Below, in pieces: positions 25,227 through 32,358 of a stretch of 64,000 nucleotides of DNA (position 1 is its first letter; the number at the start of each line of letters is the position of its first letter). This DNA comes from Terriglobia bacterium. GTDB taxonomy: Bacteria > Acidobacteriota > Terriglobia > JAJPHL01 > JAPKYU01. The position numbers and the translations under genes are program-made. The stretch lies in contig CBDCVK010000010.1 of the NCBI GenBank assembly GCA_965223005.1, forward strand, positions 416,001 through 480,000, given 5' to 3'. Under the pieces are notes generated by a model. It searched no databases. It had not been told where the DNA came from and saw nothing but the letters and a program-made list of their open reading frames with translations.

Positions 25227-25745
25227 TCAGAAGAATAAGTACTTCCGCCAGGCGGCGTCGGACCTGCCCATCTGGCGCATCAGATGGCGGCTGGTATGCA
25301 GAGTGAAGGAGCGTGGGCGGCCGATGAGCCTCATGGCCGCTTCCTCCGGCAGGCGGTCACCTTTCTGGTTGTTGCAGGGATGGCAGCAGGCCACCAGATT
25401 CTCCCAACTGGAATCGCCGCCCCGCGAGCGCGGAACAATGTGGTCCAGCGTCAATTCTGAGGCCGGAAAGGCCCCGCTGCAGAACTGGCAGGTGTTGCGG
25501 TCCCGCATCAGGATGTTCTTGCGTGACAGAGCCCGGCCCTGGAAAGGGATGCGCCGGTATCCCAATAGACGGATCACGGAGGGCACACGTACCCTGCGCG
25601 ACGGGGAGTGAAAGTAAGCTCGGCTTTCCTCCTCAGCGGAGGCCACGCCTTTCAGGATCAGCACCACGGCCCGGCGAGCGGCACAGACGTTGATGGGCTC
25701 GTAGGTGGCATTGAGAACGAGGACAGGAATGTGCAGCTCGCTCAT
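25227..25745 (-). CDS. HNH endonuclease (McrA-like, stand-alone)
   Basis: [45 protein letters not shown]. Confidence 0.9.
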
Positions 25746-26006: not shown

Positions 26007-26720
26007 TTATTCGGAGGCCAGCGCGCGGCGGCGATCCTCGGCATAAGCGGCAAGATTTCGGTTGGCGGAGACGATGGTTTCCAGGGCCTCGGCTACACCC
26101 GGCAGGGCGGGACCGGGAATCACCACGTACAACTCATCTTCGCTCAACCCCGTGTATACCCGGTTCCCGATGCAACCCAAACTGGTGACGGCGCCGGCAG
26201 CGGAAAGCGCGGCAGGCAGGGCCATGCACGTGGGCCGTCCCAGCGCCGGCAGCGAAGAGTTCGCACCGGCGCGTGCCGCCGCCTCGCTGAGCAACATGGC
26301 GGCCGCCGGCCGGCAGGCGAACAGGACCACCTGCGGGGCCGTAGGCGCGTCGGCCAGCGGCGAATAGAGGACCGCCGCAGGCGTCCGGGGTAAACGCGGA
26401 ATCCTCGGAATCTCGTCCAGGCTCAGGTAGCCCACCGAGGTCATCAGCCCCAGCGTCTCGTCCAGTTCCCGGGCGCGCTCCGGCGGAAGCTCGACGTTAT
26501 GGGTGTAGCTGCCCACCGCACAGTTGTAGTGGTCCGCCGGAACCGTGTAAAAGGTGCGCCCCTCAGCAGCCAGGCGCCAGAAGCTGCACCCGGAGGGCTC
26601 GCTCCCGCTGAACCTGGGAAGCTGAGTCGGTTCCTCGGGGAGAAAGCTCACTGCCACCGGCCTCCTGGTTAAGCCAAGCTGCTCGCAGAAGCGAAGCTCC
26701 AGTTCTTTTCTGTCACTCAT
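26007..26720 (-). CDS. DUF169-family Cys-motif protein
   Basis: PVAV, GC.FW, H.NC.VG, RPTC, SLGCIGNR.YT motifs. Confidence 0.8.
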   Translation of the reverse strand: MSDRKELELRFCEQLGLTRRPVAVSFLPEEPTQLPRFSGSEPSGCSFWRLAAEGRTFYTVPADHYNCAVGSYTHNVELPPERARELDETLGLMTSVGYLSLDEIPRIPRLPRTPAAVLYSPLADAPTAPQVVLFACRPAAAMLLSEAAARAGANSSLPALGRPTCMALPAALSAAGAVTSLGCIGNRVYTGLSEDELYVVIPGPALPGVAEALETIVSANRNLAAYAEDRRRALASE

Positions 26721-26751: not shown

Positions 26752-27087
26752 TTACGAGCTCAGCGCGTCAATCTTGGCGGCCAGAATGAAATCGCTTTCC
26801 GTCAGCCCGTCAATCTTGTGCGTCCAGATCTTGACCCCCACCTTGCCCCAGGCGAGAAAGATATCCGGGTGATGCCCCTGCTCTTCAGCCAGGTTTCCCA
26901 CCCGATTCACAAACTCCAAGGCGCTTCGGAAATCAGGGAAGCGGAAGGTTTTCTCGAGGTGGTGCTCCTCAACCACGCTCCAGCCGGGCACCTGTCGTTC
27001 GAGCCCCTCCAGTTCCGGCCCTTTGAGCGGCGGGACTCCGCCGCGACACGGTACGCAAGTCTTTGCGGCCAGTTCTGACACGTTCAT
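26752..27087 (-). CDS. phhB: pterin-4-alpha-carbinolamine dehydratase
   Basis: CVPCRGG, AEEQGHHPDI, WTHKIDGL..DFILAAKID; AGGAG RBS. Confidence 0.92.
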   Translation of the reverse strand: MNVSELAAKTCVPCRGGVPPLKGPELEGLERQVPGWSVVEEHHLEKTFRFPDFRSALEFVNRVGNLAEEQGHHPDIFLAWGKVGVKIWTHKIDGLTESDFILAAKIDALSS

Positions 27088-27254
27088 CCTCCTCTCCTGA
27101 ATACCAAGAATACCACGAAACGACAAAGGGGAAACGATGTGGCGCCCGGTCCCGATCTATGCTAGCTTGGAGTGGGCGTCCGGTCCCCTGGCCGCCACGG
27201 AAATACTGATTTCCGGAACCCTCAGGAAAGGCCGCAGCGAATAGCACACAGCCA

Positions 27255-27533
27255 ATGGCACACAAAGTAAAGTGCGTTAAGTTTCAGAAAGAGCTCCCCG
27301 GGTTAGACGCCCCGCCCTGGAGCGGCGAACTGGGGCAGCGGGTCTACGACAATGTCTCGCAGGATGCCTGGAAGCTGTGGCTGGAACACCTGAAGATGGT
27401 CATCAATGAATACCGGCTCTTCCCGGCCGATCCGGAAGCGCAGAAGCTCATCGAGGGGCAGATGGAGCAATTCTTTTTTGGCGAAGGAGCCGCCCTCCCA
27501 CCCGGTTACGTTCCACCCCAGGCCAAGAGCTGA
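27255..27533 (+). CDS. yggX: Fe(II)-trafficking / oxidative-damage protection protein
   Basis: V.CVK..ELPGL..PP..GELG.RV..NVS..AW..W...[13 protein letters not shown]. Confidence 0.9.
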
Positions 27534-27544
27534 GAAAGCAGCGC

Positions 27545-28810
27545 TTAGACAACTGCCAGCATCGGCGAGATCCGGAAGTGCAGGCGTCGGTGCGCTTCGC
27601 GCAACGCCTCCTCCACGGCCGCGGGCGAGGAAGCGCGGGCAAACAGGAAGCCCGGATAGCTGGCGCCCTCCGGCCAAGGCACCAGCTTCTGGTGCAGCTT
27701 GGCGGTAACGTGGACCTCTTCGACGCCTGGCACCCGCAAGGCGTCTTCCACTCCTTCCACTTCCTCGAAGACCCCGGCGCCGGGGATGGGAATCATCATG
27801 ACCCCTGCCGCTGCGCTTTCTCGGGCAATTCCGTCGAGCGACTCGCCCCGGGCGTTGCGGATAACCAGCTCCTCCAGCGACATCCCCGCACCGAAGCGGA
27901 GGGCGCGCGAGCAAAGGCCGCCGATGGGCCGCGCAGCCAAATCCAACACCCAAGGACCGCGGTCATTCAAGCGGAACTCGGCGTGCACAGGGCCGTGGAA
28001 CAGCCCCAGGGCGCGCACTGCGCGCTCCAAACACCCGGTCAGGGCTGCCTGCTCGCTCACCGGCAGTCGCGACGGGGTCACATAAATTGTCTCTTCGAAG
28101 TAGGGACCTTCCAACGGGTCAGGCTTGTCGAAGATGGCCAGAACCCGCAGCCTGCCCCGCCACATGAGCCCTTCCACCGCAAATTCGGACCCGGGAACAA
28201 ACTCCTCCACCAGAATCTGCTCGGTCTCAGCCTCCTTCTTCACCTGGATTTCGGGGCTAGCCAGCAGCGCGGCGATGCGGTGGAAAGCGGCCGCGAATTG
28301 CTCCGGGTTGTCAGCGCGAATGACGCCCCGGCTGGCGGCTAGCGACACAGGCTTCAGCACGCAGGGGAACGGGACGCAGGACACGCTCCCACCGTCGGCC
28401 GGAGGCGGCCCCTCGCGACAGGAATAGCAGGCATAGGCAGGCACGTTCAGCCCCGCTTCCTCGAACCGCTGCCGGGCAAGGAACTTGTTGTGGCAGGCTT
28501 CGGCCCCCTCGGGGCTGTGCCAGGTGATTCCCAGCGCGCGGCAGGCTACCGCAGCCGTCACTGTGGGCTTGTCGCCAACCGCCGCCATAGCCTGGATGGG
28601 ATGCTCGCGAGCGTAGCGGCAAATCTCATCGGCCGAGTGCGCAGGATCTTCAAAGTGCAGTGGCAGCGCAGCGTCCTGCCAGGGGTCTTCCAGCACGTGG
28701 CAGCGGTCGGTGCCCAACACCATCTCCAGTCCTAAGCCACGGGCCACTTCGGCAAACGCTTGCGTCTGGTAGCCGGTGGTGGTGGCGAGAAGAAGGAGCC
28801 TGGGCGTCAT
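27545..28810 (-). CDS. ATP-grasp ligase (L-amino-acid-ligase-like)
   Basis: NKFLAR, FPCVLKPVSLAASRGV, VEEFVPG.EFAVE, GPVHAEFR, AARPIGG. Confidence 0.88.
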   Translation of the reverse strand: MTPRLLLLATTTGYQTQAFAEVARGLGLEMVLGTDRCHVLEDPWQDAALPLHFEDPAHSADEICRYAREHPIQAMAAVGDKPTVTAAVACRALGITWHSPEGAEACHNKFLARQRFEEAGLNVPAYACYSCREGPPPADGGSVSCVPFPCVLKPVSLAASRGVIRADNPEQFAAAFHRIAALLASPEIQVKKEAETEQILVEEFVPGSEFAVEGLMWRGRLRVLAIFDKPDPLEGPYFEETIYVTPSRLPVSEQAALTGCLERAVRALGLFHGPVHAEFRLNDRGPWVLDLAARPIGGLCSRALRFGAGMSLEELVIRNARGESLDGIARESAAAGVMMIPIPGAGVFEEVEGVEDALRVPGVEEVHVTAKLHQKLVPWPEGASYPGFLFARASSPAAVEEALREAHRRLHFRISPMLAVV

Positions 28811-28834
28811 TGCTTGCTTCTTACAGGGCTTGCT

Positions 28835-30235
28835 TCATACAAGAGCAAACTGCTCTTCGGTGGGTTCGGCTCAACAGTACCAGGGCTCGTTCAGGTAGGG
28901 CACGGTAGTACGCTGATAGGGATCGGGAACTCGCAGCGGCTGCGTAGAAATGCCTGCCGCATCGTGAGCCAGCTCCCAGACTTGGGAGAAAATCGCCCGC
29001 CGCGAGTGGCCCTCCTTTTCGGCCTGCCAGACCCGTCGTTGGACTTGCTCACACAAGCGGGCCACACGTGGGTCGGGATGCTTCCAGCGGTAACTCAACG
29101 CGGCCTCGTCGAAGCCCCCAGCGACGAGATGCCGCACCTCCTCCAGTTCCAGCAGCCGTGAACCGGTGGGGATCAGCAGCCGGATGGCGAGCTGGACGGG
29201 CGCCACCTGCTCGACCAGCTTCAGCTCGTCCAGTACCGCCAGCAGGTCGCAGTAGCCCCGCAGCGTGATCCACGGCGTAAAGGCGACAAAGGTCGGCGCC
29301 AGCACAAGGCCGGTGCGCCGGCATAGCTCCACGACGTCGTACAAATCGGCGCGGGTGTGCCCCTTGTCCAGCAGCTGCAATACGCGATCGTCCACCGATT
29401 CCACGGCGCTGGTAACAAACTGGCAGCCGGTTTCGGCCAGCACCGGCAGCGCGGCGGCGTGCTTCCGCAGGTGCTCCACCTTGGCGGTCACATCGTAGGT
29501 AAGCCGGGGAAACTCATGGTGCAGAGTTCGCACAATTTCCAGCGAATGCCTGACGCCGTTTAGGAAATCGGGGTCGCCGAAGGTGATGTGTTCGGCGCCC
29601 GCCGCGACCTGGCGGCGAATGTCCTCCAACACCACGTCCCGTTGCACCACCCGGAAGGCGCCGTTGTAGACCGGAACAACGGGGCAGTGGCGACAAAGGT
29701 GCTTGCAGCCGCGAGTGGCTTCGGTGTAGCCGACCGTACGCAGCTGCCCCTGGCCGTCGGTTAGCTGCGCGTAGGAGGACAACTCGGGCAGGCCGCTGCG
29801 GTCCGGCACGAGGAAAGTTTGGCGCGATAGCGAAACTAGCGGCTCTTTCTGCACACCCCGTCCGTCCGGCAGTTGCTCGAGCACGCGCACCAGGCCCCCT
29901 TCGAACTCACCCCCCAGAATCGTTTCAGCGCCCAGACCACGCAGGTAGCTTTCGTTGAGCGGCGCGTAGAGGCCGTAGAAGCAGAGGTGGGCGCGAGGGT
30001 TGAGGCGGCGAACAGTTTCCGCACCCCGCGCCGCTATGCGCGTCGCAGTGTGCATCGGCACGTAGAACGCCACCAGATTGGCCGAACGAACCGGCTCTTC
30101 CTGCAGCTTCTCCCGGGAAAGGTCCAGGCAGGTGACCGAAGCCCCGGCCTGTCGCAGCCAGGCAGCGGGCGAAGCCAGCCCGAAGGGCTGGCGCCCCAGC
30201 TCGTAGGTCGAAATGAGAACGACTTCCGGACTCAT
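28835..30235 (-). CDS. CUAEP-tail radical SAM selenoprotein with B12-binding-like N-domain (UGA at 28871-28873 read as Sec)
   Basis: RGCKHLCRHCP CxxxCxxC; N-terminal STYELGRQPFGLAS; in-frame readthrough gives EPWYC-U-AEPTEEQFALV* ending at TGA 28835-28837; alternative start 30268. Confidence 0.87.
28841..28857 (-). promoter_or_regulatory. candidate bacterial SECIS hairpin
   Basis: AAGAGCA-GUU-UGCUCUU perfect 7-bp stem with G in the loop, starting 13 nt 3' of the in-frame UGA. Confidence 0.7.
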
Positions 30236-30366
30236 GCGGCGGCGGCTCCCAGGCGCGCTCACATTCATGATACCAAAACCCGCGCTCGGCCTGCCGGGCG
30301 TACAGCAATTCCGGCCCACGGGGGTGGGCAAGAATTCTGCTTGCACTCTGAGGGCGGTCTCGATAT

Positions 30367-30383
30367 ACTTTGCGACACAAAGC
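30367..30383. promoter_or_regulatory. palindromic operator ACTTTG-N5-CAAAGC
   Basis: ACTTTGcgacaCAAAGC, 8 nt before ATG 30392. Confidence 0.65.
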
Positions 30384-30391
30384 TTGCAGCC

Positions 30392-31021
30392 ATGCCACCG
30401 GAACTGAACGAGGCACTGGAGCAGATCAGCGCGATCCGCGGGCACCTGGTGACTGCGGAAACCTTCCGCGGCTACCGGGCCGTGCCTGCTGCGGCTACTG
30501 GCGTAGTGGCGCTGCTGGCGGCGCTGGCGCAGCCGACGTTGGCCGGCGACCTGGTGGTTCAGCCTGTGCGGTACGTCATGCTTTGGGTGGGGGCTGCGGT
30601 GCTGTGCGCGGCCGGCGTTGGCGCGCAAATGCTGCTTGGCTATCTGAACTGTGCCTCAGCCCATCGGCGCGCCACCACGCGAATCGTGGTGGGGCAACTG
30701 CTGCCCTCGCTGACGGCCGGCGCGCTGCTGACCTGGATCCTGACCTGGCGGCAACCCGATTCGGTAGCCTTGTTGCCGGGCCTGTGGGCGATGCTGGTCA
30801 GCCTGGGCGTATTTGCCTCGCGGCGTCACCTGCCGCGAACCATCGGCTGGGTGGGCCTGTACTACTTGGTGTGTGGGGCCGCGATCCTGCACTACTTGCC
30901 CGGACGGGAAGCACTGGCACCGTGGGTGATGGGGGCAACCTTCGGCGTCGGCCAGTTGGCAGCCGCGCTGGTGCTCTACTGGAATCTGGAGAGAAATGGC
31001 TCGGAAGAGGAAGCAGTCTGA
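30392..31021 (+). CDS. six-TM membrane protein co-encoded with a wHTH regulator
   Basis: MPPELNEALEQISAIR..FRGY, LPGLW, MG.TFG.GQ motifs; overlaps regulator start. Confidence 0.75.
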   Translation: MPPELNEALEQISAIRGHLVTAETFRGYRAVPAAATGVVALLAALAQPTLAGDLVVQPVRYVMLWVGAAVLCAAGVGAQMLLGYLNCASAHRRATTRIVVGQLLPSLTAGALLTWILTWRQPDSVALLPGLWAMLVSLGVFASRRHLPRTIGWVGLYYLVCGAAILHYLPGREALAPWVMGATFGVGQLAAALVLYWNLERNGSEEEAV

Positions 31022-31424
31022 AACCCAACCGACCGGCGGACGCTTTGCCTACGAAGGCTTGGACCGGCTGCTGCACGAACGCGCGCGCCTGGGCATTCTG
31101 ACCACTCTGGCCACTCGCCCGGACGGCGTGCTGTTCTCTGACCTGAAGGAACTGTGCGCGCTCACCGACGGCAACCTCAGCCGCCACCTGCAGGTGCTGC
31201 ACGAGGCCGGCCTGGTCGAGGTCTGGAAGCGGTTTGAGAACCGGCGCCCGCAGACACTTTGCCGCCTCTCGCGGCAAGGGCGCGAGAGGTTCCTGGTTTA
31301 CTTGACGGTGTTGGAAGAGGTGGTGCAGGACGCGGCCGTGACTCGCAGGGCGCTGCTGAAGCATTCCCGCAAGCCCCGGAAGGGAGAGGCGTTGGCCGCC
31401 TCCAGCGGCTGGGTGCCGGCCTGA
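30996..31424 (+). CDS. winged-helix transcriptional regulator (ArsR/MarR-like, HTH_34 type)
   Basis: LDRLLHERARLGIL, F.DLK...LTDGNLSRHL..L. Confidence 0.88.
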   Translation: MARKRKQSETQPTGGRFAYEGLDRLLHERARLGILTTLATRPDGVLFSDLKELCALTDGNLSRHLQVLHEAGLVEVWKRFENRRPQTLCRLSRQGRERFLVYLTVLEEVVQDAAVTRRALLKHSRKPRKGEALAASSGWVPA

Positions 31425-31445
31425 GCAGTTTTTTTGTGGCATTTA

Positions 31446-31479
31446 ACTTTGTACTACAGAGGTCTACATAACGCAAAGT
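31446..31479. promoter_or_regulatory. second operator copy plus an extra half-site upstream of ispH
   Basis: ACTTTGtactaCAGAGG followed by ...CAAAGT. Confidence 0.55.
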
Positions 31480-31503
31480 ACATTCCCAACACGGAGGCTC
31501 TCA

Positions 31504-32358
31504 ATGCAAGTCATCCGCGCCGAGGCCATGGGACTCTGTTTCGGGGTTCGCGACGCGCTGGAATCCATCGCCGCAGTCCCCGACCCGCACCACGTCACCG
31601 TTTACGGTGAGCTGGTGCACAACGAGGAAGTGAACCGCCGGCTGGCGGAGCGCGGCTTTCGGCAGCTCACCGAGCACAGCCGGAAGCAGGCAGTGCCGGA
31701 AACGCCGGTAGTGCTGATCACCGCGCACGGCATCAGCAACGAGGAGCGCGCGCGGCTCGAGTCCACCGGCCGCCGCCTGCTGGACACCACCTGTCCCCTG
31801 GTGCGCCGGGCGCACCAGGCCGCGCTGCGACTGGATGCCGAAGGCTGCTTGGTGCTGGTGATCGGGCGCCGGGGGCATGTGGAAGTGCGGGGGCTGGTGG
31901 GGGACCTTCGTCGCTGCGAGGTGGTGGAATCGCCCGCCGAGGTCCGCAGCTACCCGGCCGAGCGGCTTGGGGTGATCTGCCAGACGACCACCCCTGATGC
32001 GCTGCTTCGCGCGGTGCTGCGTGCGGTGCAGGCCAAGAATCCCGCCACGCAGATCCGGTTCGTGGATACCGTTTGCCGTCCCACCCGTGAGCGGCAGCAG
32101 GCGCTCGAGCGCCTGTTGCCGGCTGTGGACGCCCTGGTGGTGGTGGGCGGCAAGAATTCGCGCAATACTCGGGAGTTAGCCGAAACGGCGCGCGCCCGGG
32201 GCGTCCGAACCCTACAGGTCCAGAGTGCGGCCGAGCTGCGCCCGGCCTGGTTCCAGGAGTACCACACGGTCGGACTGACGGCCGGGACCTCGACGCTCGA
32301 CGAAACCATCGAGGAAGTGCATCGCCGACTGTTGGCCCTGGCGGTCGAGGCCTACTAG
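31504..32358 (+). CDS. ispH: 4-hydroxy-3-methylbut-2-enyl diphosphate reductase
   Basis: GLCFGV, LVHN, TAHG, DTTCPLV, GHVEV, QTT, DTVC..T..RQ, VGG.NS.NT, GLTAGTST. Confidence 0.95.
   Translation: MQVIRAEAMGLCFGVRDALESIAAVPDPHHVTVYGELVHNEEVNRRLAERGFRQLTEHSRKQAVPETPVVLITAHGISNEERARLESTGRRLLDTTCPLVRRAHQAALRLDAEGCLVLVIGRRGHVEVRGLVGDLRRCEVVESPAEVRSYPAERLGVICQTTTPDALLRAVLRAVQAKNPATQIRFVDTVCRPTRERQQALERLLPAVDALVVVGGKNSRNTRELAETARARGVRTLQVQSAAELRPAWFQEYHTVGLTAGTSTLDETIEEVHRRLLALAVEAY

Follow-up and report, generated by a model that had tools for sequence, protein, structure and literature searches.

A predicted selenocysteine-tailed radical SAM enzyme of the CUAEP/CCAEP-tail family, encoded beside an L-amino-acid ligase gene in a Terriglobia bacterium

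Introduction

No radical SAM enzyme other than ArsL is, to our knowledge, known to form a carbon-arsenic bond. As described in the available text of two preprints, ArsL cleaves SAM in a non-canonical way, producing an aminocarboxypropyl radical that is joined to As(III) to give the C-As bond of arsinothricin; the same text reports that the cysteines of a C-terminal RCCLKC motif bind As(III), and that deletion of this tail abolishes product formation and leaves SAM cleavage intact (bioRxiv 10.1101/2024.02.01.577332; bioRxiv 10.64898/2026.04.29.721666). Only six conserved cysteines are listed for ArsL in the accessible part of the more recent of these (bioRxiv 10.64898/2026.04.29.721666).

A second family of radical SAM proteins, catalogued as NF040546, is distinguished by a C-terminal CUAEP or CCAEP sequence. 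The available portion of Haft's 2022 preprint names this family in one sentence and calls it uncharacterised, and the terms 'NF040546' and 'CCAEP' are absent from the main text of a 2026 review (PMC13188914). Our literature searches on CUAEP, on ArsL together with selenocysteine, and on radical SAM selenoproteins, ATP-grasp and 3-amino-3-carboxypropyl found no functional characterisation of the family. Among amino-acid ligases, BL00235 of Bacillus licheniformis makes Met-Gly and Met-Met, according to Table 2 of PMC6920838.

Here, we analyzed a 64,000-nucleotide stretch of a Terriglobia bacterium genome (assembly GCA_965223005.1, contig CBDCVK010000010.1, positions 416,001 to 480,000), hereafter the window. 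It carries a radical SAM gene that is an ordinary member of NF040546, an already catalogued selenoprotein family, with a short tail of 11 residues.

Results

A radical SAM gene of the window continues past an in-frame TGA

The features of the locus are collected in Table 1. In the tail region, the minus strand reads CCC TGG TAC TGT TGA GCC GAA CCC ACC GAA GAG CAG TTT GCT CTT GTA TGA, which, with the first TGA taken as selenocysteine (U), translates as ...EPWYC-U-AEPTEEQFALV and ends at a second TGA (28837..28835). This is exactly the tail that an earlier note on this DNA had proposed, and its estimate of a 24-nt gap between the second stop and the ATG of the next gene (28810) is likewise correct. 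In the list of open reading frames, the corresponding frame has 585 codons and terminates at 28871.

Table 1. Coordinates of the features discussed, numbered from the first letter of the window.
Feature	Position	Strand	Remarks
Radical SAM selenoprotein gene, CUAEP/CCAEP-tail family	28835..30235	-	NF040546, 633 bits against a cut-off of 500; Pfam Radical_SAM
In-frame TGA, predicted selenocysteine, residue 455 of 466	28873..28871	-	Directly after an invariant Cys; TGA or Cys column in relatives
Eleven codons past the predicted Sec codon, AEPTEEQFALV	28838..28870	-	AEP protein-constrained; the rest doubles as SECIS
SECIS-like hairpin AAGAGC-AGUUU-GCUCUU	28857..28841	-	Six conserved bp and an optional A-U closing pair; stem begins 13 nt after the TGA
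ATP-grasp gene, L-amino-acid-ligase type	27545..28810	-	24 nt downstream, same operon; Pfam ATP-grasp_4, LAL_C2, ATPgrasp_N
YggX-type Fe(2+)-trafficking protein gene	27255..27533	+	Convergent with the operon; Pfam Iron_traffic, 124 bits
DUF169 gene	26007..26720	-	Weaker associate of the module; Pfam DUF169

The start codon is likely the ATG at 30235, which gives a protein of 466 amino acids and has GGGAG 10 nt upstream; this assignment is based on homologues, which begin about 2-4 residues ahead of the sequence VVLISTYE. An ATG at 30268 is a possible alternative start, in whose 477-residue numbering C85 and C271 become C96 and C282. The long minus-strand open frame upstream of 30268 is probably noncoding, because a divergent plus-strand ORF (30370-31101, 243 codons) occupies that space. 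The start of this ORF is some 130-160 nt upstream of the radical SAM gene, and its product looks hydrophobic and matches no Pfam family. A scan of positions 27000-31600 for promoters and terminators gave nothing useful.

The product matches the NF040546 profile, entitled "CUAEP/CCAEP-tail radical SAM (seleno)protein", with 633.2 bits over profile positions 1-467 of 468 (curated cut-off, 500 bits), and the match continues past the TGA; a six-frame search of the genome with the same profile returned 627.7 bits, with one TGA inside the match. A family of this kind, with cysteine homologues, had been named in the earlier note. Pfam Radical_SAM matches with 45.6 bits, and the CX3CX2C motif of radical SAM enzymes is present as CKHLCRHC, with C177, C181 and C184 invariant in 31/31 aligned sequences. 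Two further cysteines, C85 and C271, are also invariant in these 31 sequences and are present in 77-78 of 78.

ArsL (NF040542) comes second, with 282.7 bits across profile positions 2-409 of 423, ahead of a third family at 42 bits. The ArsL score does not attain that family's cut-off of 450 bits, and the RCCLKC (CCxxC) motif of ArsL is absent: the tail of the window protein is CUAEP, and the ArsL profile match stops ahead of the tail. Judged by profile scores, ArsL is nevertheless by far the closest characterised family. The AlphaFold2 model of the protein has a pLDDT of 89.1; the tail is of low confidence, with residues 460-466 below 50. The solved folds nearest to the model are AprD4, TsrM, OxsB and MiaB, in which a Rossmann-like N-terminal domain is followed by a radical SAM barrel. 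A search of PDB sequences with the family profile gave no match, so that no ArsL-like structure is obtainable by sequence.

Relatives carry TGA or a cysteine codon in the same column

To examine the TGA in relatives, a scan of one genome per species was performed, which yielded 558 confirmed relatives, and the best 80 of these 558 loci were kept. They are mostly from Acidobacteriota, the rest belonging to Methylomirabilota/NC10, Chloroflexota, Gemmatimonadota, Latescibacterota, Verrucomicrobiota and Dormiibacterota, with one Nonomuraea. The family is thus large, and it is also present in 71 of 401 sampled genomes of the phylum.

Among these best 80 of 558 loci, the column of the window TGA holds TGA in 64 (including locus L077, whose variant motif WYC*VEP was added to the count by hand) and TGC or TGT in 14, and the tail was not located in two (L090 and L110). 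Of the 80, 77 have a C-terminal Cys-(Sec/Cys)-Ala-Glu-Pro motif, and the frame remains open past the codon, with AEP next, in TGA and Cys relatives, in agreement with the expectation of the earlier note that homologue tails would read C*AEP or CCAEP and be conserved past the TGA. C454, E457, P458 and the Sec/Cys column show no exception in the 31-sequence alignment, in which A456 and Q462 reach at least 90% conservation. At the DNA level, with columns counted from the U of the UGA, variation just past the TGA sits at third codon positions (columns 6, 9 and 12), while G7, A8, C10 and C11 are invariant, which is the signature of translated sequence.

Repeated switching between selenocysteine and cysteine is typical of selenoprotein families. 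On a FastTree phylogeny of 78 sequences, built with the tail columns left out, the Sec/Cys state needs at least seven changes, six of them forced by well-supported branches. In the phylum sample, 61 of the 71 matches have exactly one in-frame TGA, alongside seven full-length Cys forms and three partial matches. Taken alone, the 11-codon open extension after the stop is unremarkable and no more than expected by chance; the window TGA is predicted as selenocysteine because relatives have the same TGA or a Cys codon at that place. From this comparison, we consider it very probable that the UGA at 28873..28871 is read as selenocysteine, aided by a SECIS hairpin lying within the last eleven codons.

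Past the Sec/Cys codon, the tails come in two sizes (loci L032-L111). The shorter, which is that of the window, has about 11-12 residues; the longer has about 27 and terminates in ...AKEAL.QAEAFV.

A SECIS-like hairpin overlaps the codons of the tail

The earlier note had described a hairpin, AAGAGCA-GUU-UGCUCUU, starting 13 nt after the UGA, and it is found there, at 28857..28841. The perfect 7-bp stem described for it exists in the window, but the conserved stem has only 6 bp, with 28857-28852 paired to 28846-28841 around a 5-nt loop, AGUUU; the seventh pair, A23-U27, is formed in only 7 of the 25 distinct sequences of the window's class. A local fold of 26 nt yields the hairpin (-7.8 kcal/mol, z -2.1), whereas in a 71-nt context it is not the minimum-energy structure returned by RNAfold (z +0.57). 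The window's own hairpin, considered alone, is statistically unexceptional.

The hairpin gains its significance from the comparison with relatives. The 64 TGA-bearing tails, including that of the window, align without gaps over 45 nt and fall into two registers. The first, with 36 sequences, has a 7-bp stem, often with an internal A.C mismatch, and a 4-nt AGUU loop; the second, with 28 sequences including the window, has a 6-bp stem (columns 17-22 with 28-33) and a 5-nt AGUUN loop. Short tails mostly go with the 5-nt-loop register and long tails with the 4-nt-loop register. In the apical loop, the G at column 24 is invariant and the U at column 25 is conserved. In the window's class, 96% of cells are paired and three of the six pairs show compensatory changes (AU/GC/CG at 17-33 and 18-32, AU/GC at 20-30), which bears out the reading of the element as a bacterial SECIS-type hairpin. 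None of 500 shuffles matched the observed pairing or covariation in this class, and sliding the 3' arm by 1-3 columns lowers pairing to 41-54%.

The mean local folding energy is -10.2 kcal/mol in 52 distinct TGA forms versus -4.1 kcal/mol in 14 Cys forms, the sequences in this comparison being related to one another, so that its p-value is no more than indicative, and the hairpin is mostly lost in the Cys forms, being kept in three (L055, L075 and L083). In addition, peptide residues 5-10 past the Sec position covary (EE..AP/AL versus GD/RD..VP/AP) in a way that keeps the stem paired; they change in concert because the SECIS stem occupies those codons. The locus is therefore a clear case of dual coding, in which the same nucleotides specify peptide and SECIS stem. 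No Rfam family matched anywhere in the window at gathering thresholds, so that no curated SECIS or riboswitch model applies.

The genome encodes the machinery for selenocysteine insertion

The source genome (3.24 Mb in 10 contigs, 96% complete) contains the complete set of genes on which the proposed recoding depends, as the earlier note had anticipated: selA (551 bits), selB (341 bits), selD (357 bits) and tRNA-Sec (78.5 bits), all above their family cut-offs. The tRNA-Sec was also called by ARAGORN, with anticodon tca, and lies about 40 kb beyond the end of the window; ARAGORN found no tRNA in the 64-kb window itself. The selD gene (G000:C10:916629-917552, locus L010) contains one in-frame TGA, which makes it probable that the organism's selenophosphate synthetase, too, is a selenoprotein.

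The radical SAM gene is associated with a ligase and an iron-trafficking protein

The ATP-grasp gene downstream is of the L-amino-acid-ligase type, with Pfam matches to ATP-grasp_4 (118.6 bits), LAL_C2 (55.1 bits) and ATPgrasp_N (28.4 bits), all above cut-offs. Its closest solved homologue is BL00235 (PDB 3VOT), matched with 146 bits over residues 48-412. Of the best 80 of the 558 loci, 54 have a ligase homologue in the 7-kb flanks of the radical SAM gene, 45 have a YggX gene near it, in two different arrangements, and nine have a DUF169 gene near it, directly after it in seven. Nothing informative on DUF169 was found in the literature. Two upstream gene clusters common to 35-36 loci match no Pfam family and are possibly shadow reading frames. 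Just past the DUF169 gene of the window lies a small ORF on the minus strand (25227-25745) encoding an HNH endonuclease (HNH_5, HNH), with no evident link to the module.

In 14 loci without a nearby ligase, the genes immediately beside the radical SAM gene differ for the most part from locus to locus (glutamate synthase-like, Fpg, arylsulfotransferase, TerC, GCS2 and integrase genes); YggX adjoins the radical SAM gene in L086 and DUF169 in L055. In a single case (L085:5126-6652, Nonomuraea sp., a Cys form), the adjoining gene is a divergent carboxylate-amine ligase of the GCS2 family. No methyltransferase, arsM-like or other, occurs among the gene clusters common to at least 8 of the 77 clustered loci; in a single locus (L109), the neighbourhood of the radical SAM gene includes a methyltransferase that looks unrelated.

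The association also holds at the level of whole genomes. Across 401 evenly sampled genomes of the phylum, with overlap counted by hand, the ligase is present in 81; 68 genomes have both genes, three the radical SAM gene alone and 13 the ligase alone, counts that overstate independence because the sampled genomes are related. Both genes are kept in several genomes (G279, G367, G082, G055 and G002) despite a separation of more than 700 kb on a single contig. The 13 ligase-only genomes include all four of family f27 (G024, unpublished; G286; G357; G389), which encode a close ligase homologue and gave no match to the radical SAM protein at E <= 1e-60; a different partner may serve the ligase in this family.

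We also considered whether the ligase is itself a selenoprotein, and this was rejected, since the 48 long tblastn matches are all free of in-frame stops. Three genomes of the phylum had been flagged with one TGA in the ligase; their tblastn alignments are stop-free, and the TGA may be located past the aligned region, close to the C-terminus.

Discussion

Proposed chemistry

Taken together, the locus is best explained, in our view, by a selenocysteine-tailed NF040546 enzyme with an ArsL-like mechanism, a reading to which we assign a probability of about 0.5. By analogy with ArsL, SAM would be cleaved on the [4Fe-4S] cluster bound by the CX3CX2C motif, giving a 3-amino-3-carboxypropyl radical. 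The acceptor of this radical would be a soft atom, whether arsenic, a different metalloid or a chalcogen, which the mobile Cys-Sec tail would hold, perhaps with the help of the invariant C85 and C271. The co-transcribed L-amino-acid ligase could then attach a second amino acid to the methionine-like amino acid so formed, and YggX could support the oxygen-sensitive Fe-S cluster. That ArsL-like chemistry and ligase coupling go together in this way is a tentative proposal, also made by analogy, which we rate somewhat below even. The methionine dipeptides made by BL00235 would fit a methionine-like (aminocarboxypropyl-X) substrate for the window ligase; this is only a hint.

Arsenic, another metalloid and sulfur are all candidates for the substrate atom. 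In the case of selenium, ten genomes with a Cys-form enzyme were considered. Seven of them have selD above the cut-off, whereas selD above the cut-off was not found in the other three: G375 (97% complete) and the genomes of L085 (Nonomuraea) and L055. It is therefore unlikely that selenium delivered as selenophosphate is an obligatory substrate; direct use of selenide is still compatible with these data. In one of the seven (G218:C2:120181-121105), two neighbouring frames share the selD match, one covering profile positions 1-222 and the other 222-309, and this gene is possibly decaying after loss of selenocysteine use.

The earlier note had suggested that the Cys-Sec pair forms a redox, metal(loid)-carrying or methyl-carrying arm. 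A redox or metal(loid)-carrying role is plausible by likeness to ArsL, whose tail binds arsenite. Nothing specific supports a methyl-carrying role; ArsL, the closest characterised relative, transfers an aminocarboxypropyl group and not methyl.

Alternative explanations

Comparable redox arms are known in the Gly-Cys-Sec-Gly sequence of mammalian thioredoxin reductase and in the C-terminal Cys pair of ribonucleotide reductases. The Cys-Sec tail could accordingly form a selenenylsulfide that carries reducing equivalents to a C85/C271 pair oxidised in each turnover, holding no atom of the substrate. The two cysteines, invariant here and absent from ArsL, would then have a function, the predicted flexibility of the tail (low pLDDT) would suit a shuttle, and the exchange of selenocysteine for cysteine is seen in redox selenoproteins. 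We consider this explanation unlikely, given that no thioredoxin, reductase or other redox partner is found among the conserved neighbours and that the cysteine tail of ArsL, as far as the available text of the ArsL preprints describes it, binds substrate and has no redox role.

Sulfur is donated from sacrificial or auxiliary clusters in LipA, BioB and MiaB. It is conceivable that C85, C271, C454 and U455 ligate a second Fe-S(e) cluster, which would donate S or Se to the aminocarboxypropyl or substrate radical and be rebuilt by YggX. The recurrence of this iron-handling protein with the module, in two arrangements and in 45 of the best 80 of 558 loci, is consistent with such a role, as is the presence among the structural matches of MiaB and RimO, whose N-terminal domain bears an auxiliary cluster. 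The N-terminal domain of the window enzyme lacks the three-cysteine pattern of the methylthiotransferases, and we know of no precedent for adjacent Cys and Sec residues both ligating one cluster. Since the ArsL tail is moreover reported, in the available text on that enzyme, not to bind an auxiliary cluster, we regard the cluster explanation as improbable.

Finally, the gene callers' choice of this TGA as the end of the gene and the weakness of the hairpin in its 71-nt context might suggest a true stop after ...WYC, with the downstream conservation and hairpin forming an RNA element that might, for example, regulate the ligase gene, but this is hardly credible in view of the Cys codon followed by in-frame AEP in 14 of the best 80 of 558 relatives, the third-position variation past the TGA, the inclusion of the tail in the curated NF040546 model and the full selenocysteine machinery of the genome.

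Implications

For annotation, the predicted readthrough means that gene callers shorten the protein by 12 residues, the correct product being a 466-residue selenoprotein, and the truncation at the TGA removes what is probably a substrate-binding or redox arm. Carrying the ArsL-like reading further, it is possible, though on balance we doubt it, that the radical SAM enzyme, ligase and YggX together make an undescribed metalloid or chalcogen methionine-like amino acid, through ArsL-type bond formation on a selenolate arm, which would be released as a dipeptide and would be a relative of arsinothricin, serving as a metabolite or antimetabolite widespread among soil bacteria. If this inferred chemistry is true, soil bacteria would harbor an undiscovered class of organo-metalloid or organo-chalcogen amino acids.

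Comparison with described systems

The hairpin lies directly downstream of the UGA and has G and U in its apical loop, in a geometry that we take to resemble that of the E. coli fdhF-type SECIS; it differs in that the family stem is short (6-7 bp), has no bulged U and occurs in two registers. The ligase has in BL00235, which makes dipeptides with N-terminal methionine, its closest solved relative, although the relationship is distant. With NF040546, the window enzyme shares a full-length match above the cut-off, the CX3CX2C motif, the Cys-Sec-Ala-Glu-Pro C-terminus and the occurrence of Sec or Cys in relatives, and nothing of substance sets it apart.

The window enzyme and ArsL share the same layout, the catalytic region is almost entirely matched, and both end in a thiol-rich C-terminal tail. 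The tails themselves do not align, being CU-AEP in the window enzyme and RCCLKC in ArsL, and the partner conserved in the loci compared is an amino-acid ligase in place of ArsM. The window family has, in addition, two extra invariant cysteines, C85 and C271, with no conserved counterparts in ArsL, and the active-site chemistry of the window enzyme may therefore differ from that of its closest characterised relative.
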